Of a stretch of 64,000 nt of DNA, positions 3,331 through 57,661 are shown piece by piece. The notes below the pieces were generated by a model. The model worked only from the letters and a program-made list of their open reading frames with translations, was not told the DNA's origin and did not search any database. Each line of letters opens with the position of its first letter. Positions within the stretch are counted from its first letter, which is position 1. Source of the stretch: Eledone cirrhosa (Eukaryota). Both the position numbers and the translations under genes were made by a program. The DNA lies in assembly GCA_964016885.1 (NCBI GenBank), contig OZ024744.1, positions 79,050,001 through 79,114,000 on the forward strand, given 5' to 3'.

Positions 3331-3800
3331 AAGAAGATGAAGTATTTGATTCTGTATGCAAACATGCAAGCATGGATATTATTGCATGTGTGGATCTCTG
3401 TGTGTTGAATGTATGTGTGTAAGCATGGAAAATAAATGTGAATGATGTTGATATATCATTATCATTATCATCATAGTTAATGTCTTTTTTTCCATGCTGG
3501 CATAGGTCAGATGAACTGTCATGTTATGAAGAGAGACAGGTCAGGTGACCACACATTGCTCATATGATCCTTTTATTGGCCTGGTTTTCTATGGCTGGAT
3601 GTCTTTTCTAATGCCAACCTACCTAACAAGGTGGAACGGAGACACACACAAATTAATATATATATATGCAGAAGTTATATTTAATTTATTGGGATTCCAA
3701 CAAGCTTAAAAGTTTATAACTGACATAAAGCACTCAACAGAATACTGGAGTAAATATTCAATATATTAATAAATGGAAACTATATTTATAAAACCATAAT

Positions 3801-3864
3801 TATTTTATTATATATATTTCGAGGACAACAAGGCAATCTTGGTGCGCTTTCATCAGATAAAATA
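3801..3864 (-). ncRNA. Mirror copy of hammerhead-like motif
   Basis: Reverse complement reads TATTTTAT CTGATGA AAGCGCACCAAG..CTTG..CCTC GAAA TATATA TA ATAAAATA; stem II closing pair is mismatched. Confidence 0.55.
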
Positions 3865-3946
3865 CAAGATTTGTTTTATAAATATTGACATAACCATGGA
3901 AAAAACAACCTTGACGGTTATGTCAATATTTATAAAACAAATCTTG

Positions 3947-4011
3947 TATTTTATCTGATGAAAGCGCACCAAGAATGCCTTGGTTGTCCTTGAAATATAT
4001 ATAATAAAATA
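3947..4011 (+). ncRNA. Type I minimal hammerhead ribozyme-like motif
   Basis: Stem I TATTTTAT/ATAAAATA; CTGATGA at 3955-3961; stem II AAG..ACCAAG/CTTGGT..CTT; GAAA at 3992-3995; palindromic TATATA stem III; UH site T4002-A4003. Confidence 0.65.
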
Positions 4012-4989
4012 ATTATGGTTTTATAAATATAGTTTCCATTTATTAATATATTGTATATATATATATATATGACTTGTGATGAAGTAATAAAAGCTGATCG
4101 AGATCAATTGTACCTCCCACATACGATGACACAAGACCAAGATCTCTGGGATTATGCAGAAATGCAGAAGGCCTGCCTTCCCATGGGCACAAGCTGAAGC
4201 TGAAGCAAACATATAGTATGCACAACTCTCACCTCCACCACACCTCACTCTTCCATACATTTCTCATGAGACCAGACTGAAGCATACATCTACTGAAGCG
4301 CCCACCCCACACTGTAAAGTGGTTGTGATGGCAACACAACAAAAAAGCACTCAGTCCACATGGTAAAATGGTCATGTAGGTGTCACAACAAGAAGCACCC
4401 AGTACACACTGTAAATGTGGTTGGCGTTAGGAAGGTCATCCAGCTGTAGAAACCAAGCCCAAATCAGTTCTGTTTGAGCAAGACATGGTTACCTGACCTG
4501 GCATTTCTCACAACTCGTCTAACCCATGTTAGCGTGGAAAAATGGATGAAGACAAAGGAAAAATACAAAGGAAAGACAGACAGTCCCATCTCCTCAGACA
4601 ACCTCTAGAAGTCACTGCAGTTTCGGTGCATGAAGGTTGATACCATTCATTCCAGTGTACATTTGGACAGAACAAAACAGGTAGAGACATGTTACACCCT
4701 TAAGCAAATTACATATATATAAATGAAAAAGTATCCCAAGTCTGTCATCTGACAATATAGTGAGAGAATGGTGTGCACAAGTTTAGCCAAAGGAGAAGGA
4801 AATATATAAAGGAGAGAAATAGTAAAACAGAAGAAAATAATACAGGCTGTAGTCCAACATGCAGACAAAGAAAATAATACAGGCTGTAGTCCAGCATGCA
4901 GACAAAGATGAATGACACTGAGGTGAAGAAAAGGTAAGAAGGAAGAATAGGCAGTCTGTGCAGTAACAAAAACCACAACCATCTCCAAA

Positions 4990-18253: not shown

Positions 18254-18594
18254 CACATGGCTTAGTGGTTAGAGCATTGGCCTTGCAATCGAAAGGTTGT
18301 GAGTTCAATTCTCAGACCGGGTGATGTGTTGTTTCCTTGAGCAAGACACTTTATTTCACATTGCTCCAGTTTACTCAGCTGTAGAAATGAGATGATAGGG
18401 ACTGGGGTCCCTATCATTCCACTGCAAAGTGGTCGTGGAGGTGCCACGGAAAAAAAGTACCCAGCACTCACTGTAAATGAGGTTGGTGTTAGGAAGGGCA
18501 TCCAGCTGTAGAAATCAAGCCAGAATCAGTTCCTGTCCCACCCTTGCAAGCAGGGAAAAGCGGACGTAAAATGAAATGATGATGATGATGATGA
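18252..18594 (+). mobile_element. tRNA-derived SINE family B (Deu/Nin-like core, RTE-derived body and tail); also in both arms of the 55 kb palindrome
   Basis: A box tggcttagtggttag, B box gagttcaattc, core tccttgagcaagacactttat, tail cccacccttgcaagcagggaaaagcggacgtaaaa(tga)n nearly identical to the RTE 3' end at ~34120-34170. Confidence 0.85.
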
Positions 18595-19659: not shown

Positions 19660-22600
19660 AGTAATATATGAAAGGTAGGGAGAGTATGATGGAAGATATA
19701 GTGTTGCTGGGAGGGGAGTGATAGATGAGAGGTAGGAAGAGTATGATGGGAGATATAGTGTTGGGGGAGGGGAGTGATAGATGAGAGGTAGTGAGAGTAT
19801 GATGGGAGATATAGTGTTGGGGGAGTGATAGATGAAAGGTAGGGAGAGTATGATGGGAGATATAGTGTTGGGGGAGTGATAGATGAGAGGTAGGGAGAGT
19901 ATGATGGGAGATATAGTGTTGGGGGAGTGATAGATGAGAGGTAGGGAGAGTATGATGGGAGATATAGTGTTGGGGGAGTGATAGATGAGAGGTAGGGAGA
20001 GTATGATGGGAGATATAGTGTTGGGGGAGTGATAGATGAAAGGTAGGAAGAGTCTGATGGGAGATATAGTGTTGGGGGAGGGGAGTGGTAGATGAGAGGT
20101 GGGGAGAGTATGATGGGAGATATAGTGTTGGGGGGAGTGATAGATGTGAGGTAGGGAGAGTATGATGGGAGATATAATGTTGGGGGGGAGTGATAGATGA
20201 GAGGGAGTGAGAGTATGATGGGAGATATAGTGTTGGGGGAGGGGAGTGATAGATGAGAGGTAGGGAGAGTATGATGGGAGATATAGTGTTGGAGGAGGGG
20301 AGTGATAGGTGAGAGGTAGTGAGAGAGTATGATGGGAGATATAGTGTTGGGGGAGGGGAGTGGTAGATGAGAGGTAGTGAGAGTATGATGGGAGATATAG
20401 TGTTGGGGGGGAGTGATAGATGAGAGGTAGGGAGAGTATGATGGGAGATATAGTGTTGGGGGAGTGATAGATGAGAGGTAGGGAGAGTATGATGGGAGAT
20501 ATAGTGTTGGGGGAGTGATAGATGAGAGGTAGTGAGAGTATGATGGGAGATATAGTGTTGGGGGAGGGGAGTGATAGATGAGAGGTAGTGAGAGTATGAT
20601 GGGAGATATAGTGTTGGGGGGAGTGATAGATGTGAGGTAGGGAGAGTATGATGGGAGATATAGTGTTGGGGGAGGGGAGTGATAGATGAGAGGTAGTGAG
20701 AGTATGATGGGAGATATAGTGTTGGGGGAGGGGAGTGATAGATGAGAGGTAGTGAGAGTATGATGGGAGATATAGTGTTGGGGGAGGGGAGTGATAGATG
20801 AGAGGTAGTGAGAGTATGATGGGAGATATAGTGTTGGGGGAGGGGAGTGATAGATGAGAGGTAGTGAGAGTATGATGGGAGATATAGTGTTGGGGGAGGG
20901 GAGTGATAGATGAGAGGTAGTGAGAGTATGATGGGAGATATAGTGTTGGGGGAGGGGAGTGATAGATGAGAGGTAGTGAGAGTATGATGGGAGATATAGT
21001 GTTGGGGGAGGGGAGTGATAGATGAGAGGTAGTGAGAGTATGATGGGAGATATAGTGTTGGGGGAGGGGAGTGATAGATGAGAGGTAGTGAGAGTATGAT
21101 GGGAGATATAGTGTTGTGGGAGTGATAGATGAGAGGTAGTGAGAGTGTGATGGGAGATATAGTGTTGGGGGAGGGGAGTGATAGATGAGAGGTAGTGAGA
21201 GTGTGATGGGAGATATAGTGTTGGGGGGGAGTGATAGATGAGAGGTAGGGAGAGTATGATGGGAGATATAGTGTTGGGGGAGGGGAGTGATAGATGAGAG
21301 GTAGGGAGAGTATGATGGGAGATATAGTGTTGGAGGGAGGGGAGTGATAGATGAGAGGTAGTGAGAGTATGATGGGAGATATAGTGTTGGAGGGAGGGGA
21401 GTGATAGATGAGAGGGAGTGAGAGTATGATGGGAGATATAGTGTTGGAGGGAGGGGAGTGATAGATGAGAGGGAGTGAGAGTATGATGGAGATATAGTGT
21501 TGGGGAGGGGAAGTGATAGATGAGAGGTAGTGAGAGTATGATGGGAGATATAGTGTTGGGGGAGGGGAGTGATAGATGAGAGGTAGGGAGAGTATGATGG
21601 GAGATATAGTGTTGGGGGAGGGGAGTGATAGATGAGAGGTAGGAGAGTATGATGGGAGATATAGTGTTGGGGGAGTGATAGATGAGAGGTAGTGAGAGTA
21701 TGATGGGAGATATAGTGTTGGGGGAGGGGAGTGATAGATGAGAGGTAGGGAGAGTATGATGGGAGATATAGTGTTGGGGGAGTGATAGATGAGAGGTAGT
21801 GAGAGTATGATGGGAGATATAGTGTTGGGGGAGGGGAGTGATAGATGAGAGGTAGTGACGGTATGATGGGAGATATAGTGTTGGGGGAGTGATAGATGAG
21901 AGGTAGTGAGAGTATGATGGGAGATATAGTGTTGGGGGAGGGGAGTGATAGATGAGAGGTAGTGAGAGTATGATGGGAGATATAGTGTTGGGGGAGGGGA
22001 GTGATAGATGAGAGGTAGTGAGAGTATGATGGGAGATATAGTGTTGGGGGAGGGGAGTGATAGATGAGAGGTAGTGACAGTATGATGGGAGATATAGTGT
22101 TGGGGGAGGGGAGTGATAGATGAGAGGTAGGGAGAGTATGATGGGAGATATAGTGTTGGGGGGAGTGATAGATGAGAGGTAGGGAGAGTTTGATGGGAGA
22201 TATAGTGTTGGGGGAGGGGAGTGATAGATGAGAGGTAGTGAGAGTATGATGGGAGATATAGTGTTGGGGGAGGGGAGTGATAGATGAGAGGTAGGGAGAG
22301 TATGATGGGAGATATAGTGTTGGGGGAGGGGAGTGATAGATGAGAGGTAGAGAGAGTGTGATGGGAGATATAGTGTTGGGGGAGTGATAGATGAGAGGTA
22401 GGAAGAGTATGATGGGAGATATAGTGTTGGGGGAGTGATAGATGAGAGGTAGGGAGAGTATGATGGGAGATATAGTGTTGGGGGAGGGGAGTGATAGATG
22501 AGAGGTAGGAAGAGTATGATGGGAGATATAGTGTTGGGGAGAGGGGAGTGATAGATGAGAGGTAGGGAGGAGTATGATGGGAGATATAGTGTTGGGGGAG

Positions 22601-25600
22601 GGGAGTGATAGATGAGAGGTAGTGAGAGTATGATGGGAGATATAGTGTTGGGGAGGGGAGTGATAGATGAGAGGTAAGTGAGAGTGTGATGGGAGATATA
22701 GTGTTGGGGAGGGGAGTGATAGATGAGAGGTAGTGAGAGTGTGATGGAGATATAGTGTTGGGGGAGTGATAGATGAGAGGTAGGAAGAGTATGATGGGAG
22801 ATATAGTGTTGGGGGAGGGGAGTGATAGATGAGAGGTAGGAAGAGTATGATGGGAGATATAGTGTTGGGGGAGGGGAGTGATAGATGAGAGGTAGTGAGA
22901 GTATGATGGGAGATATAGTGTTGGGGAGGGGAGTGATAGATGAGAGGTAGTGAGAGTGTGATGGGAGATATAGTGTTGGGGAGGGGAGTGTTGATAGATG
23001 AGAGGTAGTGAGAGTGTGATGGGAGATATAGTGTTGGGGGAGTGATAGATGAGAGGTAGGAAGAGTATGATGGGAGATATAGTGTTGGGGGAGGGGAGTG
23101 ATAGATGAGAGGTAGTGAGAGTATGATGGGAGATATAGTGTTGGGGGGAGTGATAGATGAGAGGTAGGGAGAGTATGATGGGAGATATAGTGTTGGGGGA
23201 GTGATAGATGAGAGGTAGTGAGAGTGTGATGGGAGATATAGTGTAGGGGGAGTGATAGATGAGAGGTAGTGAGAGTGTGATGGGAGATATAGTGTTGGGG
23301 GAGGGGAGTGATAGATGAGAGGTAGTGAGAGTATGATGGGAGATATAGTGTTGGGGAGGGGAGTGATAGATGAGATGTAGTGAGAGAATGATGAGAGATA
23401 TAGTGTTGGGGGAGGGGAGTGATAGATGAGAGGTAGTGAGAGTGTGATGGGAGATATAGTGTTGGGGAGGGGAGTGATAGATGAGAGGTAGTGAGAGTGT
23501 GATGGGAGATATAGTGTTGGGGAGGGGAGTGATAGATGAGAGGTAGGAAGAGTATGATGGGAGATATAGTGTTGGAGGAGGGGAGTGATAGATGAGAGGT
23601 AGGAAGAGTATGATGGGAGATATAGTGTTGGGGGAGGGAGTGATAGATGAGAGGTAGGGAGAGTATGATGGGAGATATAGTGTTGGGGGAGTGATAGATG
23701 AGAGGTAGGGAGAGTATGATGGGAGATATAGTGTTGGGGAGGGAGTGATAGATGAGAGGTAGGAGAGAGTATGATGGGAGATATAGTGTTGGGGGAGTGA
23801 TAGATGAGAGGTAGGAGAGTATGATGGGAGATATAGTGTTGGGGGAGTGATAGATGAGAGGTAGGGAGAGTATGATGGGAGATATAGTGTTGGGGGAGGG
23901 GTGTGATAGATGAGAGTAGGAAGAGTATGATGGGAGATATAGTGTTGGGGGAGGGAGTGATAGATGAGAGGTAGGGAGAGTATGATGGGAGATATAGTGT
24001 TGGGGGAGTGATAGATGAGAGGTAGGGAGAGTATGATGGGAGATATAGTGTTGGGGAGACCGTGATAGATGAGAGGAAGTGAGAGTGTGATGGGAGATAT
24101 AGTGTTGGGGGAGTGATAGATGAGAGGTAGGGAGAGTATGATGGGAGATATAGTGTTGGGGGAGGGGAGTGATAGATGAGAGGTAGTGAGAGTATGATGG
24201 GAGATATAGTGTTGGGGGAGGGGAGTGATAGATGAGAGGTAGTGAGAGTATGATGGGAGATATAGTGTTGGGGGGAGGGGTGTGATAGATGAGAGGTAGG
24301 GAGAGTATGATGGGAGATATAGTGTTGTGGGAGGGGAGTGATAGATGAGAGGTAGGAGAGTATGATGGGAGATATAGTGTTGTGGGAGGGGAGTGATAGA
24401 TGAGAGGTAGTGAGAGAATGATGGAGATATAGTGTTGGGGGGAGTGATAGATGAGAGGTAGTGGGAGTATGATGGGAGATATAGTGTTGTGGGAGGGAGT
24501 GATAGATGAGAGGTAGGGAGAGTATGATGGGAGATATAGTGTTGGGGGAGGGGATTTACAGATGAGAGGTAGGAGAGTATGATGGGAGATATAGTGTTGG
24601 GGGAGGGGAGTGATAGATGAGAGGTAGTGAGAGTATGATGGGAGATATAGTGTTGTGGAGGGGAGTGATAGATGAGAGGTAGGGAGAGTATGATGGGAGA
24701 TATAGTGTTGGGGGAGGGGATTTACAGATGAGAGGTAGGGAGAGTATGATGGGAGATATAGTGTTGGGGGAGGGGAGTGATAGATGAGAGGTAGTGAGAG
24801 TATGATGGGAGATATAGTGTTGGGGGGAGTGATAGATGAGAGGTAGGGAGAGTATGATGGGAGATATAGTGTTGGGGGAGTGATAGATGAGAGGTAGGGA
24901 GAGTATGATGGGAGATATAGTGTTGGGGGAGTGATAGATGAGAGGTAGGGAGAGTATGATGGGAGATATAGTGTTGGGGGAGGGGAGTGAGATAGATGAG
25001 AGGTAGTGAGAGTATGATGGGAGATATAGTGTTGGGGGATGATAGATGAGAGGTAGGGAGAGTATGATGGGAGATATAGTGTTGGGGGAGTGATAGATGA
25101 GAGGTAGGGAGAGTATGATGGGAGATATAGTGTTGGGGGAGTGATAGATGAGAGGTAGTGAGAGTATGATGGGAGATATAGTGTTGGGGGAGGGGAGTGA
25201 TAGATGAGAGGTAGTGAGAGTATGATGGGAGATATAGTGTGGGGGAGGGGAGTGATAGATGAGAGGTAGTGAGAGTATGATGGGAGATATAGTGTTGGGG
25301 GAGGGGAGTGATAGATGAGAGGTAGTGAGAGTATGATGGGAGATATAGTGTTGGGGGAGTGATAGATGAGAGGTAGGGAGAGTATGATGGGAGATATAGT
25401 GTTGGGGGAGTGATAGATGAGAGGTAGGGAGAGTATGATGGGAGATATAGTGTTGGGGGAGTGATAGATGAGAGGTAGTGAGAGTATGAGGGAGATATAG
25501 TGTTGGGGGAGGGGAGTGATAGATGAGAGGTAGTGAGAGTATGATGGGAGATATAGTGTTGGGGGAGGGGAGTGATAGATGAGAGGTAGTGAGAGTATGA

Positions 25601-27230
25601 TGGGAGATATAGTGTTGGGGAGGGAGTGTGATAGATGAGAGGTAGTGAGAGTATGATGGGAGATATAGTGTTGGGGGAGTGATAGATGAGAGGTAGGGAG
25701 AGTATGATGGGAGATATAGTGTTGGGGGAGTGATAGATGAGAGGTAGGGAGAGTATGATGGAGATATAGTGTTGGGGGAGTGATAGATGAGAGGTAGGGA
25801 GAGTATGATGGGAGATATAGTGTTGGGGGAGGGGAGTGATAGATGAGAGGTAGTGCGAGTATGATGGGAGATATAGTGTTGGGGGAGGGGAGTGATAGAT
25901 GAGAGGTAGTGGGAGTATGATGGGAGATATAGTGTTGGGGGGAGTGATGGATGAGAGGTAGTGAGAGTATGATGGGAGATATAGTGTTGGGGGAGGGGAG
26001 TGATAGATGAGAGGTAGTGAGAGTGTGATGGGAGATATAGTGTTGGGAGGGAGTGATAGATGAGAGGTAGTGAGAGTGTGATGGGAGATATAGTGTTGGG
26101 GAGGGGAGTGATAGATGAGAGGTAGTGAGAGTATGATGGGAGATATAGTGTTGGGGGGGAGTGATAGATGAGAGGTGGGAGAGTATGATGGGAGATAAGT
26201 GTTGTGGGAGGGAGTGATAGATGAGGTAGGGGAGAGTATGATGGGAGATATAGTGTTGTGGAGGGAGGTGATAGATGAGAGGTAGTGAGAGTATGATGGG
26301 AGATATAGTGTTGGGGGAGTGATGATGAGGGTAGGAGAGTATGATGGGAGATATAGTGTTGGGGGAGGGATAGATGAGAGGTAGGGAGAGTATGATGGGA
26401 GATATAGGGTTGGGGGAGGTGAGTTGAGAGGTAGGGAGAGTATGATGGGAGATTAGTGTGGGGGAGTGGATAGATGAGAGGTAGGGAGAGTATGATGGGA
26501 GATATAGTGTTGGGGGAGTGATAGATGAGAGGTAGGTGAGTGTGATGGGAGATATAGGGTGGGAGGGGAGTGATAGATGAGAGGTTGGGTGAGTGTGATG
26601 GGAGATAGTGTGTGGGGGAGGGTCGGAGTGAGAGGAGAGGTAGGGAGAGTGTGATGGAGTTAGTGTGGGGGAGGGGAGTGAGTGAGAGTGTAGGTGAGGT
26701 GAGGGGAGTATAGTGGTGGGGGGGAGAGTGATAGAGGAGAGGTAGGTGAGGTGTGATGGGAGATAGAGTGTGGGGGTGGGGAGTGAGAGGAGAGGTTGTG
26801 AGAGTGGAGGGGAGATAGGGTGGGGGAGGGAAGTGGGTGGGAGGGAGTGGAGGATGGAGATGAGTGTGGGGGGGAGGGGTGGGAGTGTGATGAGGGAGGG
26901 TGAGGATGAGGGGAGTGAGTGGGGGGGGGGGAGGGTGAGTGGTGTGGGTGGGTGAGGAGGTTGGGTGAGTGAGGGTGGGGAGGGTGGGAGTGAGGGTGAG
27001 GAGTGGTGAGGGGAGTGAGTGGGGGGGGGGGTGTGATAGAGGTGTGGGGGGTGGTGAGGGTGTGGTGGGGGGGGGGTGGGTGGGTGTGTGGTGTGGGAGG
27101 GTGTGGTGGAGGGGTGTGTGTGGGGGGGGTGGTGGGTGAGTGGAGAGGGTGGGTGTGGAGGTGGGGTGTGTCACTGGGTGCTCGGGGTCTGCGCGAGGGA
27201 GGACGAGGGGGGGGGGGGGGTGTGAGAGGC
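19660..27230. repeat. Satellite 1: 56/51 bp unit GTGATAGATGAGAGGTAG(T/G)GAGAGTATGATGGGAGATATAGTGTTGGGGGA(GGGGA), more than 100 copies, decaying to G-rich sequence after ~26.4 kb
   Basis: Period 56 read directly (e.g. 20941 vs 20997); the + strand almost lacks C. Confidence 0.97.
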
Positions 27231-27239
27231 TAGGGAGCT

Positions 27240-29804
27240 CGGGGGTGAGAACTGATGTAGCGCTAGTACGAGCTGAGTGATAGAAGAACCTTATCGTGTG
27301 AGCACTGATGTAGAGATAGTAAGAGCTGAGTGATAGAACAGAACAATTCTAGTGTGAGACATGATGTAGAAGATAGTAAGAGATGAGTGATACGAACAAA
27401 TTATAGTGTGAGAAATGACTGTAGAGAAAGTACGCGATGAGTGCACTAGACACAACTTACTAGTGTGAGAAATGATGTAGAGCTAGTAAGAGATGAGTGA
27501 TAGCAACCATATAGTGTGCGACATGATGTAGAGATAGTAAGAGATGAGTGCTAGAAAGAAAATTATAGTGTGAGAACATGATGTAGAGATAGTAAGAGAT
27601 GAGTGCTAGCAAAACATACTAGTGTGAGCAATGATGTAGAGATCGAAAGAGATGCGTGCTCGAAAGACAAATTATAGTGTGAGAATGATGTAGAGAAAGT
27701 AAGGGATGAGTGATAGCCAGAAACTTATAGTGTGAGCCATGATGTAGAGAAGTAAGAGCTGAGTGATAGAAAGCAAACTTATAGTGTGCGAACTGATGTA
27801 GAGAAAGTAAGCGCTGAGTGATAGACACGACACATTATAGTGTGAGAAATGATGTAGAGAAAGTAAGAGATGAGTGACTAGCAAGAATTATAGTGTGAGA
27901 CATGATGTAGCGACTAGTAAGAGATGAGTGATAGAACAAATTATAGTGTGAGAACTGATGTAGAGACAAGTAAGAGATGAGTGATAGAAAAATTATAGTG
28001 TGAGAATGATGTAGAGAAAGTAAGAGCTGAGTGATAGAACAAATTATAGTGTGAGAAATGATGTAGCGAAAGTAAGAGATGAGTGATAGAAACAATTATA
28101 GTGTGAGAAATGATGTAGAGAAAGTAAGCGCTGAGTGATAGAACAACATTATAGTGTGAGAAATGATGTAGAGAAGTCAGCGATGAGTGAAGAAAGCAAT
28201 CTATAGTGTGAGAATGATGTAGAGAAAGTCAGAGATGAGTGATCGAAAGCAATATATCGTGTGAGAAATGATGTAGAGAACGTAAGAGCTGAGTGATAGA
28301 AAAATTATAGTGTGAGAAATGATGTAAGCGATAGTAAGAGATGAGTGATAGACAACGCAAATTATAGTGTGAGAAATGATGTAGAGAAAGTACGAGATGA
28401 GTGATAGAAACAATTATAGTGTGAGAAATGATGTAGAGACACGTCAAGAGATGAGTGATAGAAACGAAAATTCTAGTGTGAGACAATGATGTCGAGATCG
28501 TAAGCTGAGTGATAGAAAGAAACATTATAGTGTGAGAACTGCTGTAGAAGTAAGGCTGAGTGATAGAAAAGAAAATTATAGTGTGAGAAATGATGTAGAG
28601 ATAGTAAGAGATGCGTGATAGAAAGCACACATTATAGTGTGAGAAATGATGTAGAGAATCGTCAGAGATGAGTGATCAGACACGACAATTATAGTGTGCG
28701 AAATGATGTAGAGCTAGTACGAGATGAGTGATAGAAAAACTTATAGTGTGAGACATGATGTACGAGAAAGTAAGAGATGAGTGATAGCAAAAATTATCGT
28801 GTGAGAAATGATGTAGAGCAAGTAAGAGCTGAGTGATAGACAACAATTATAGTGTGCGACAATGATGTCGCGAAAGTACAGAGATGAGTGATAGAAGAAA
28901 ATTATCGTGTGAGAAATGATGTAGAGCTAGTCAGGCTGGTGATAGACAAACTTATAGTGTGAGAACTGACTGTAGAGATAGTAAGAGATGAGTGCTAGAA
29001 CAAATTATAGTGTGAGAATGATGTAGAGAAGAGCTGCGTGATAGAAACAATTATAGTGTGAGAACTGATGTAGAGAAGTAAGAGATGAGTGATAGAAACA
29101 ATTATAGTGTGAGACATGATGTAGAGAAAGTAAGAGATGAGTGCTAGAACAACACTTCTAGTGTGAGAAATGATGTAGCGAAGTCAGAGCTGAGTGACTA
29201 GAAAAACAATTATAGTGTGAGAAACTGATGTAGAGATAGTCAGAGCTGAGTGATAGACAAAGAAAATTACTAGTGTGAGAACAGATGTAGAGATAGTCAG
29301 ATGAGTGACTAGAACAAATTATAGTGTGAGACATGATGTAGAGAACGTAAGAGATGAGTGATCGACAACAATTATAGTGTGACGAAATGATGTCGAGAAA
29401 GTACGAGATGCGTGATAGAAAACACATTCTAGTGTGAGACAATGATGTAGAGATAGTAAGAGATGAGTGATAGAAGAACATTCTAGTGTGCGCAATGATG
29501 TAGAGAACGTACAGAGCTGAGTGATAGACAACCTTATCGTGTGAGCAATGCTGTAGAGCAAGTAAGAGATGAGTGATCGACACATTAATAGTGTGAGACA
29601 CTGATGTAGAGAAAGTCAGAGCTGAGTGATAGAAAAATTATAGTGTGCGAAATGATGTAGAGCATAGTACGCGCTGAGTGACTCAAACAGAAACATTATA
29701 GTGTGAGAATGATGTAGCGACAGTAAGCGATGAGGGTTAGAAAAGAACACATTATAGTGTGAGCAATGATGTAGAGAAAGTAAGAGCTGAGTGATAGAAA
29801 AGAA
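27240..29804. repeat. Satellite 2: ~52 bp unit GATGTAGAGAAAGTAAGAGATGAGTGATAGAAACAATTATAGTGTGAGAAAT
   Basis: Tandem periodicity with many scattered A>C changes and indels; runs into the gap. Confidence 0.92.
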
Positions 29805-53589: not shown

Positions 53590-53639
53590 GTAAGTTTCCT
53601 GGAAAACTAATTTTTCAATTGTTGCTTGTTGTTTATTGT

Positions 53640-53824
53640 CGTCATCATCAACATCATCATCAACACCATCATCATTATCATGGTCATCATCAACACCATC
53701 ATCACCATCATCATCATGGTCATCATCATCATCATCATCATCAACACCATCATCATTATCATGATCATCATTATCATGATCATCATCATCATCATCATCA
53801 TCAACACCATCATCATTATCATGG

Positions 53825-53855
<31 letters not shown>

Positions 53856-54345
53856 GGTCATCATTATCATCATCATCATCATCATCAACACCATCATCAT
53901 TATCATGGTCATCAACATCATCATCATCATCAACACCATCATCATTATCATGGTCATCATGGTCATCATTATCATCATCATCATCAATATCACCAACATC
54001 ATCATCATCAACACCATCATCATTATCACGGTCATCATTATCATCAACATCACCATCATCATCATCATCAACACCATCATCATTATCATGGTCATCATTA
54101 TCATCAACATCACCATCATCATCATCATCAACACCATCATCATTATCATGGTCATCATTATCATCAACATCATCATCATCATCATCAACACCATCATCAT
54201 TATGATGGTCATCATCACCATGGTCATCATTATCATCAACATCATCATCATTATCATCATCATCGACATCATTATGATGAACACCATCATTGACATCATC
54301 ATCATCTTCATCATCATCATTGTCGACAACATCAACATCAACATA
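53640..54345. repeat. (CAT)n-derived compound microsatellite
   Basis: Seen directly; gives the poly-M/H/I ORFs. Confidence 0.95.
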
Positions 54346-55287
54346 TAATGTCCATTTTTCCCTGTTATCAAAAATTGATTGGGTCTTCTCAAACTGACTC
54401 AGTATTCAAGTAGAGCTACTGACCCCTAATATTGGTCATGGGCCCAACAACGTATGGACGAGAAAGACATTCCTTTGATAATTTACAACCAAAATCTGAG
54501 GCTGGTGCATGAGGTCAGATTCACTAATTGATATGTTGATAACACCTCGCTCCACAAATTATAAACACAATAGCTGGAAGAACCCTTTAGGAACTCACAT
54601 GTCAGCCGGGACACGAGAAGAAGAAGGACGGGTTTTTACCTGCAGTATATCACAAAATTGGATTTTCATCTGAAGATACTGTTTCCATAGCAACAACGTT
54701 ACATCTTGGATTGCATAAGGGAACCATTGAATTAATTATAATGAATAAACAATTTATGAAACATCAGCATCTTTTTTAATGTTATTTCACACACACATAT
54801 ATATATATATATTTAAATGCCTCTATATTCAATTCATATATATACGTATATGTGTGTATGTGTTATGTATTTCTGTAGAAAAGGTAAAGGAAAGAGTGCT
54901 CTATGTATCGTACAGAGCTATTTAATTACATAATAAACATCATCATCATTTTCATCATCATTTTACGTCTGCTTTTCCCTGCTTGCAAGGGTGGGACGGG
55001 AACTGATTCTGGCTTGATTTCTACAGCTGGATGCCCTTCCTAACACCAACCTCATTTACAGTGAGTACTGGGTGCTTTTTTGCCGTGGCACCTCCACGAC
55101 CACTTTGCAGTGGAATGATAGGGACCCCAGTCCCTATCATCTCATTTCTACAGCTGAGTAAACTGGAGCAATGTGAAATAAAGTGTCTTGCTCAAGGAAA
55201 CAACACATCACCCGGTCTGAGTATTGAACTCACAACCTTTCAATTGCAAGGCCAATGCTCTAACCACTAAGCCATGTGCAATATAAA

Positions 55288-55365
55288 TATTTCATCTGAT
55301 GAGTGTACTGGATGTTTCTGTTAAAATCGATCATCTAGTTTCCTGAAACCTTTGGTAATGGAATA
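55288..55365 (+). ncRNA. Type I hammerhead ribozyme-like motif in HERC2 intron (sense strand)
   Basis: Stem I TATTTCAT/ATGGAATA; CTGATGA at 55296-55302; stem II ACTGGATG/CATCTAGT with imperfect base; GAAA at 55345-55348; stem III CC-TTT-GG; GUA cleavage triplet ending A55357. Confidence 0.65.
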
Positions 55366-55465
55366 ATTATATTGTGTTGTTTATTATGTAATGAAATATA
55401 TATATATATATATATATATATATTTCATTACATAATAAATTAATTATTCCATTACCAAATATAAT

Positions 55466-55543
55466 TATTCCATTACCAAAGGTTTCAGGAAACTAGATGA
55501 TCGATTTTAACAGAAACATCCAGTACACTCATCAGATGAAATA
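55466..55543 (-). ncRNA. Mirror copy of hammerhead-like motif
   Basis: Reverse complement of 55288-55365. Confidence 0.6.
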
Positions 55544-56112
55544 TTTATATTGCACATGGCTTAGTGGTTAGAGCATTGGCCTTGCAATTGAAAGGTTGTG
55601 AGTTCAATACTCAGACCGGGTGATGTGTTGTTTCCCTGAGCAAGACACTTTATTTCACATTGCTCCAGTTTACTCAGCTGTAGAAATGAGATTATAGGGA
55701 CTGGGGACCCTATCATTCCACTGCAAAGTGGTCGTGGAGGTGCCACGGCAAAAAAGCACCCAGCACTCACTGTAAATGAGGTTGGTGTTAGGAAGGGCAT
55801 CCAGCTGTAGAAATCAAGCCAGAATCAGTTCCCGTCCCACCCTTGCAAGCAGGGAAAAGCGGACGTAAAATGATGATGATGTTTATTATGTAATTAAATA
55901 GCTCTGTACGATACATAGAGCACTCTTCTTTCCTTTACCTTTTCTACGGAAATACATAATACATACACACATATACGTATATATATGAATTGAGTATAGA
56001 GGCATTTAAATATATATATATATATGTGTGTGTGAATTGAGTTTAGAGGTAGTTTTATATATATATATATATTATTTTATTAATTCTAAATTTGTTTTGT
56101 TTTGTTTTTTAG

Positions 56113-56373
56113 TTCTGCGAAACCAACAGAAAAAGCAACACATGGACTTGCACGTGTGGGATCGAGAGCTGCCCTTAGTTTTGCTTTTGCATTCTTGTAT
56201 CGAGCATGGCGTAGTAGTGAAGATTCTGATCTTTGTAGTGAATTACTACAAGAATCTCTAGATGCACTTAGATCACTACCTGAAGCCACTCTTTTTGATG
56301 AGAGTTCTGTATCTCCAGTCTGGCTTGAAGTTGTTGAAAGAGCATCTAAATTTTTACATTCCGTTGTGGCAGG
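56113..56373 (+). CDS. HERC2: HERC2 coding exon ([54 protein letters not shown]...)
   Basis: Nearly identical to the recalled human HERC2 segment; tttttag acceptor, GG|gtaagt donor, phase 2 to 2. Confidence 0.97.
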
Positions 56374-57661
56374 GTAAGTCTGAGAGTCCATGTTTCTTCA
56401 TCATTGAATTAAATATTGATTTCTATGAGTCAACGAGGAATCCTCTTTGTTGTCACTTGGCCTACTAGAAATAGTAACCAAATCTCCCTTGTACCAAGAA
56501 AGGTAGGAGCAATGGCATGTTGGATAATGTAGGCCTGGATAGATACGCTGTCTGAGAAAAAAAAAAGATGGGATGGTCACAACTAGAATGCCTTTGATAA
56601 TAGATTTGCTGGATATGGGCTAACCTGTGACTAAACAACATATTGACTTCTTTGATAAACATAAAGTCTAAGAGACAATGCAATGACACTTTCTCAAGTG
56701 GCAATCTGGCACATTCGGTGACTAACCCAGGCATGACTGCTTGACAAGCCTAAAATTGCAAGCTGTCGAAGTATTGGTCGCTCTCTGTTAGGTTTATGGT
56801 CGAACCTATGGAGACATCTGGCATTCTTGGTCCCCAGTCCACTTCCCTGCTCACTACTATTGGGGTGGAGTTGGCCATCTGCAGGTGTGAGCCCCATGAG
56901 CTGGAATGGCTATTTGGCCACATTCCGGGGCACAATTTTCTCCATTCTGTCTGCTGGGTCCATGAAGTGGCCTTGTATATGGGATCCTGCATGCCAGAGA
57001 ATGCTCCCTATACCTTCAGGGCCCCATATCATTGGGGTAGGGATGTTGAGATGTATAATTTGACACATAATCACATGTATTTCTAGTGAACATTTTGAAA
57101 AGGGATCACTAGAAATTGTTACAATGAGGACATCTTCAATTTTAGAAGTGATGTAAAGAAAAATGAAAAAAAAATGTTAGAATCATGGATTGAAATCAAG
57201 TGATGGACTGCCGGAAGTTTAACCCTTTTGTTACCTTATTTTTAATGAAAACCACTACTTATGATTTTCAATCATTTAGGAAATAATCAAGGGAGTTAAT
57301 AACATAATTAATTTTCTCATTATTAAGCTGATGTTTGGAATATAACTTAATACAGGTTCTTATGTAAAATTATGATGGAATAACCCAAACATGCATGGAA
57401 AATCAGGTGTAATAGAATAATACTGATAAACATTTTAATATAAATCATTTTGTATTATAGAATCGGGGGCAGTTTTAGGCAGTTTGTTATCTGTCTTACG
57501 GGTTAACTTATGTGCTGCAATAGTTATTACCATTGAACTAAGTATTGCATAAGGAATAAAGTTTATTGAATTGACTCAAGTATATTGCTGGTGATGCTCT
57601 AGCATGGCCAGAACTAACTGGTTAGGACCAGTAAAAGGGCAAGCAGTTGAGGAAGTTGTCA

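Follow-up and report, generated by a model that had tools for sequence, protein, structure and literature searches.

Why should two identical hammerhead ribozyme motifs face each other near the center of a long palindrome within an intron of HERC2? In the 64,000-nucleotide stretch of the Eledone cirrhosa genome analyzed here (the window), an earlier note had read this arrangement as a recurring one, in which Penelope-type ribozyme and reverse transcriptase (RT) activity generates inverted duplications that can capture neighboring DNA, and in which the ribozyme might act as a switch in pre-mRNA. We arrive at another account, to which we assign a probability of about two in three: the hammerheads form the 3' terminus of an abundant dispersed repeat, which is likely a Neptune-type Penelope-like element (PLE), and the convergent pair is an in-place inverted duplication, likely produced by the fold-back of DNA at a TA run.

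Results

A palindrome in a HERC2 intron

The convergent pair lies in a HERC2 intron (GT...AG, 53590-56113, + strand), within a 1.25-kb palindrome (54786-56036) whose arms of about 625 nt meet at an AT run and differ by 8 substitutions and 3 indels; in an arm-versus-arm alignment, the inner 178 nt show no differences. The palindrome ends 77 nt before the splice acceptor, and the exon that follows (56114-56374, + strand) matches HERC2 proteins at up to 87%, the best matches being molluscan. Four more HERC2 exons were placed on the + strand of the window. Pfam, PDB and the atlas were blank for this exon, and one public contig spans 56119-56373 and runs on beyond that stretch.

A descriptor scan of the whole window, together with a sequence check, placed the sense hammerhead, its mirror copy and a 19-nt duplication near the palindrome center where they had been reported. 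The + strand copy (55288-55365) is a minimal type I hammerhead motif with a broken stem II base: stem I has 8 bp (one G-U) and a 3' strand that reaches 55365, CUGAUGA is at 55296, and GAAA-CC-UUU-GG-UA is at 55345-55357, with the predicted cut after A55357 (a GUA triplet). The mirror copy (55466-55543, - strand) is identical to it and is antisense in the HERC2 pre-mRNA, and the HERC2 transcript therefore carries no second ribozyme.

From the center outward, each half of the palindrome consists of (AT)n, a tail-less hammerhead arm, a SINE, a tail-bearing arm of the element and about 75 nt of local flank. On the left, these parts are the tail-less arm (55283-55396, + strand), 5'-truncated at the base of an extended stem I; the SINE with a (GAT)n tail (54943-55279, - strand), delimited by the window scan and the arm alignment; the tail-bearing arm (54859-54942, - strand; reference positions 189-273); and an inverted copy of local, non-element flank (54786-54858, - strand). 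The center is (AT)14 (55396-55423), a run of the kind at which the tail-less arm usually ends in family copies. On the right, and in this arm only, there is the 19-nt duplication of the stem III/stem I end (55441-55459, - strand, with its second copy at 55462-55480), and farther out are the SINE (55552-55881, + strand), the tail-bearing arm (55882-55963, + strand, from the family alignment and a comparison with the sister tail) and the local flank (55964-56036, + strand, from the arm alignment). Because its parts follow this order, one half amounts to an ordinary divergent insertion whose joint is occupied by a SINE; locus L011 holds a divergent insertion of this form that lacks the SINE. The head of the SINE has a weak tRNA match in the copy at 18258, and ARAGORN reported no tRNA in the SINE.

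Immediately to the left of the palindrome (54640-54786) is another repeat end with a degenerate CUGANGA-like stretch, which is also present in L044 (77% over 154 nt) and L062. Elsewhere in the window, about 8 kb (20001-28000) have a GC skew near +1 and evidently form a simple repeat array.

A dispersed repeat and its insertion pattern

The motif belongs to a dispersed repeat, of which it is the 3' end. A genome search with 55282-55385 returned 1,105 candidates, 40 of which were scored and yielded 52 matches, so that the parent family for which the earlier note had suggested a search does exist. In its copies, the hammerhead is preceded by AT/TG-rich sequence, and the 3' end, usually at a TA or CA run, is located either just past the ribozyme or about 60 nt beyond that point; inspection of the flanks shows copies ending at (TA)n or AT-rich targets.

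Inverted pairs are frequent in this family, as had been anticipated: an inverted partner lies directly upstream in 34 of 60 tail-anchored copies (two of the 60 being the query copies), and 33 of these 34 partner arms have no tail, i.e., they stop at the short end, such that the tail of about 60 nt is present at one end only. The convergent layout, in contrast, does not recur in the manner proposed. Among 127 places, to which 136 loci were reduced, 68 have a divergent neighbor within 1 kb and 7 have a convergent one, which makes the convergent pair an exception (18 loci outside the 60-copy pairing count are included in this one). Three of the 7 convergent places are same-copy duplications. The same duplication as in the window occurs in L013/L014, L229 and L259, with arms of about 200, 34 and 30 nt, and all four same-copy convergent cases, the window included, are at the tail-less end.

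The window copy is 5'-truncated at the base of the extended stem I, like a cluster of other family arms (13 of 94 at reference 101-103, and 29 of 94 at 95-113); an RT stop, an RNA end or a short master copy are candidate causes. The notion that copies start at the cleavage site was rejected, as reference 167-177 accounts for 10 of 94 arm ends and shows no sharp peak. Head-to-tail arrays and direct tandem pLTR-ORF-pLTR copies of the family were both absent from the fetched loci, among which there were only two weak same-strand pairs. The tails of some copies, and window positions 55925-55950, have a polypyrimidine run ending in CAG that resembles a splice acceptor, and an intron in the pLTR is possible on this sequence.

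PLE insertions have been described as taking the form of an inverted, 5'-truncated copy with a tail at one end (excerpts of PMC8557442 and PMC3846280), a form that can be accounted for by two RT start sites observed in vitro (excerpt of PMC11167929). The back-to-back arms, one-sided tail and TA-run targets of the present family match this signature.

A common source for the two arms

Several features are private to the two arms of the palindrome. Both contain a loop insertion that is found in 0 of 63 other copies, a tail variant found in 0 of 75, and a SINE variant found in none of 19 other aligned copies. The SINE-hammerhead junction is spanned by 2 of the 40 scored matches, both in the window palindrome, and the local flank finds a close match (97-100%) only between the two window arms; among the family copies compared, the sequence of 54786-54858 is downstream of no other tail. 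Because the private mutations, the junction and the local flank are all shared, both arms come from one local, SINE-containing insertion, which is duplicated in place around (AT)14.

Departures from the family majority bear on the order of events. In the element parts, 5 of 165 columns are changed in both arms and 2 in one arm only, and in the SINE, 2 of 305 columns are changed in both arms and 4 in one arm only. This pattern suggests that the element came first, the SINE second and the duplication last, an order that rests on 2-5 substitutions per part, which variation in the source copy could mimic. The SINE, rather than being captured by the element as previously suggested, would then have arrived after the element and before the duplication.

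These differences also count against the palindrome being a fold-back artefact of assembly or library preparation. Such an artefact might explain the identity of the inner 178 nt and the fact that no public contig spans the palindrome (one 55-nt public contig matches the SINE-hammerhead junction exactly, but its 21 nt on one side are too few for it to count as bridging). However, the arms differ by substitutions and indels, departures from the family majority occur on both of them, and similarly aged palindromes are common in a 790-kb sample of the genome (see below). We therefore regard an artefact as very improbable.

The parent element

The family's own ORF was not found: in an upstream walk, similarity among the 7 longest copies broke off at microsatellite-like sequence, and no RT/endonuclease match was present in four 10-kb stretches upstream of family copies. 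As a result, parentage rests on the insertion pattern and on a sister family that is about 75% alike in the tail. In this sister family (L088), the end of a GIY-YIG-type ORF is followed by two hammerhead-like motifs and then by a tail that shares 64 of 85 columns with the window tail. The sister family's open frame of 546 aa contains RT motifs, a Zn-finger-like linker and GIY-YIG-type motifs, and has atlas scores of 0.94-0.98 with RVT_1/GIY-YIG/HTH_animal clusters; there was no Pfam match on three related ORF pieces, and PDB was also blank for related ORF pieces. The sister family is young (99-100% identity; 1,493 candidates; L088, L330-L359). A hammerhead-like core lies 3' of the ORF in 29 of 30 sister copies, and the terminal tail is within reach in 1 of 30. 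The two hammerhead-like motifs 3' of its ORF are on the same strand; in the first, the cleavage position is mostly UG, a sequence that does not fit NUH and is hence non-cleavable.

Related endonuclease sequence is very abundant (49,739 candidates in a genome search). Endonuclease fragments beside L023 and L066 were rejected as the family's ORF, since they are part of another family, whose 3' end is different. About 2 kb past the right end of the window (L327:1943-3169), there is a broken Penelope-like RT/endonuclease ORF.

The Penelope-type origin favored in the earlier note is thus supported by the back-to-back arms, the one-sided tail and the RT/GIY-YIG ORF of the sister family. Judging from these sequences, the window family is likely a Neptune-type Penelope-like retrotransposon, the Neptune label being given for the Cys-rich linker only, as in the excerpt of PMC8557442; the missing ORF of the family and the blank Pfam results on the three related pieces argue against this part of our reading. 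Literature searches on octopus hammerheads, octopus palindromes or inverted repeats, and cephalopod Neptune, conducted at title level and mostly in open-access sources, returned nothing on the window family or on palindrome density. The supplements of PMC4209133 and PMC8557442 may list the family or its relatives.

Hammerheads and palindromes across the genome

Both hammerheads and palindromes are very dense in a sample of 79 evenly spaced 10-kb stretches (790 kb; L123-L201), which contains 31 strict hammerhead matches (about 39 per Mb) and 34 tight palindromes (arm length ≥100 nt, spacer ≤50 nt). The strict descriptor found 0 matches in each of three doublet shuffles and 0 in the complement, and the hammerhead motif is therefore not due to chance.

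The claim that both long palindromes of the window hold hammerheads is correct, but the pair in the second one (3751-4061) is divergent, not convergent, and derives from another Penelope-like family. Its hammerheads are at 3864-3801 (- strand) and 3947-4011 (+ strand), this palindrome is the window's only other tight long one, and by inspection its end is of the same kind as that found 3' of an RT/GIY-YIG ORF fragment in L126.

If hammerheads marked palindromes in general, as the earlier note implied, inverted repeats should be enriched for them. Among 52 sampled inverted repeats (arms of at least 80 nt, spacers of at most 300 nt), 47 have no hammerhead and 5 contain a hammerhead-like copy, as against 1.5 expected (7 of 500 random placements); all five are divergent, and two of them overlap. 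For spacers of at most 50 nt, the count is 3 of 39 against 1.14 expected (56 of 500 placements), which is not significant. When spacers of up to 1.5 kb are admitted, hammerhead-like copies are no more often in arms (12 of 35) than are SINE pieces (18 of 54), the corresponding values for spacers of up to 100 nt being 7 of 35 and 4 of 54. Palindromes are thus only weakly a hammerhead phenomenon. Six of the 34 tight palindromes are TA-centered (8% background), and L143, L164 and L173 have TA-centered in-place duplications with no hammerhead. The SINE palindromes in L159 and L191 were considered as fold-backs and rejected, as they look like independent insertions; at these sites (L159:9135-9859 and L191:3329-4010), the same SINE is paired head-to-head and tail-to-tail at one microsatellite.

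Predicted activity of the ribozyme

Under the switch model put forward earlier, only prior pairing with the downstream arm would keep the sense ribozyme from cutting the HERC2 pre-mRNA. The sense strand of HERC2 does carry the + copy, whose core (CUGANGA, GAAA and an NUH site with helix I) and GUA site are intact. An 8-bp stem II is also present, but it is parted from the core by a loop (G-U, U/C, G-C, U/U), such that the closure of helix II by G10.1-C11.1 is replaced by G-U and then mismatches. This broken base is the commonest type in the family, in which it is fully paired in 10 of 55 copies, and as the majority state it does not indicate local tuning. Across 20 aligned copies, helix I is paired in 100% of cells, and covariation is no higher than in shuffles. 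A palindromic helix III/loop 3, which would allow dimers, is absent from the window copy (loop UUU), with near-palindromic variants in 11 of 55 copies.

In constrained folding of the monomer, which leaves aside tertiary contacts, magnesium, dimers and protein help, the predicted probability of the active fold is 6e-5 for the window copy, as opposed to 6e-3 and 2e-2 for two intact copies, i.e., 100-400 times lower. With the RNA end at 55380-55440, stem I has a predicted probability of about 0.8, which would favor a switch, but that of the 10.1-11.1 pair is 0.001, and stem I is predicted to be lost again when transcription has proceeded to about 55455. The predicted time window for the + ribozyme is less than about 90 nt of transcription, and at the speed of polymerase II, transcription to about 55455 takes a few seconds. 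Rfam gave no hammerhead match in the window or in an intact family copy, and its miRNA and snoRNA matches were rejected as below the gathering score. The folding predictions indicate that the ribozyme is probably inactive, as the earlier note had itself suspected from the imperfect base of stem II. Moreover, single minimal hammerheads gave no detectable cleavage in the experiments described in the excerpt of PMC4209133. A kinetic switch at this locus is, in our estimation, extremely unlikely.

Discussion

We propose that the element inserted at a TA run as back-to-back arms, both 5'-truncated, one with a tail of about 60 nt and the other with none; this pattern is observed, and the enzyme responsible is putative. 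A SINE would, to judge from divergence, have then landed at the joint between the two arms. Finally, a broken or stalled strand may have formed a fold-back at the tail-less end, where (AT)n is self-complementary, whereupon about 625 nt (the hammerhead arm, the SINE, the tail arm and about 75 nt of flank) would have been copied and rejoined, a mechanism that is presumed for a local duplication that is itself observed. The ribozyme, being predicted inactive, would have no role in this duplication. Once transcribed as part of the HERC2 pre-mRNA, the palindrome would fold into a double-stranded hairpin about 600 bp long, which stops just short of the splice acceptor.

Alternatively, the second arm might have been made by Penelope enzymes: the endonuclease would have nicked the TA run alongside, and the RT would have used a read-through RNA such as the HERC2 pre-mRNA as template, beginning at the tail-less start site and copying hammerhead, SINE, tail arm and flank into the nick tail-to-tail. 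Both arms do stop at the short end that is usual in the family, the center holds no other flank, related endonuclease sequence is plentiful, and a young family exists; the excerpt of PMC3846280 further describes unrelated DNA captured between pLTRs and expects 3' self-priming to yield tail-to-tail repeats. The restriction of the four same-copy convergent cases to the tail-less end is a point against fold-back, in that element enzymes could make them, as is the small proportion of tight sampled palindromes that are TA-centered. However, the tail-less end always adjoins TA, and DNA fold-back therefore predicts the same place, such that the position of these cases, which are few and include the ascertained window, fits both readings alike. 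Less compatible with an enzymatic origin are the TA-centered duplications that exist without any hammerhead, the occurrence of the SINE-hammerhead unit nowhere else among the 40 scored matches, and the arms in L013/L014, both of which include about 12 nt of flank past the element end. On balance, we consider enzymatic synthesis of the second arm possible but doubtful. It is also unlikely that the Penelope endonuclease and RT constitute a local palindrome-making machine, which re-cuts the TA runs that adjoin the tail-less ends of old insertions and copies upstream SINEs or host intron into tail-to-tail hairpins.

Fold-back, our preferred reading, has a counterpart in the inverted duplications that form at DNA breaks, where self-pairing at a short inverted sequence likewise copies local DNA (excerpt of PMC3907307). 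Those are much larger events, whereas the duplication in the window is about 625 nt long, interstitial, and centered on a TA microsatellite with no spacer. The underlying insertion differs from the Neptune-clade EN+ PLE units in excerpts of PMC8557442 and PMC3846280 in its tail (about 60 nt, versus a published 30-40 nt), in the SINE at its joint and in the absence of a recovered ORF, and also in that the whole unit and its flank are duplicated tail-to-tail, the rarer orientation.

The hammerhead itself resembles the minimal metazoan PLE hammerheads in the excerpt of PMC4209133, where dual motifs are about 100-700 bp apart on opposite strands and copies are mostly truncated; it likewise has a type I core, a long helix II and a short helix III. 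It departs from them in lacking G10.1-C11.1 (the window family has G-U or A-U), in having no extra preceding nucleotide in the pairing used, and in its 3-bp helix III, non-palindromic UUU loop and mismatched stem II base. Non-LTR retrozymes (excerpts of PMC7229834 and bioRxiv 10.64898/2026.07.22.740005) are likewise non-coding repeats with a type I hammerhead and are related to PLE ends, but the window family differs from them in that no head-to-tail arrays were found in the fetched loci and the canonical short-helix architecture is lacking.

Taken together, the locus is likely ordinary transposon debris, of a kind already described and with a single secondary duplication added to it, rather than a ribozyme switch. 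It is of use as a clean natural record: in 33 of 34 inverted pairs the tail is one-sided, in agreement with the two RT start sites that were measured in vitro. According to the excerpt of PMC11167929, cleavage is dispensable for insertion, though cleavage there is protein-assisted, and protein help was found necessary for the ribozyme of an anole element; that a subfamily with a mismatched stem II has spread widely is consistent with dispensable cleavage. If element enzymes do make tail-to-tail duplications, Penelope elements would have a new way of giving rise to double-stranded RNA in the host: through a palindrome-making machine of this kind, host genes such as HERC2 would gain long double-stranded RNA in their introns, and some of the very high palindrome density in this genome (34 tight palindromes in 790 kb) could be accounted for.
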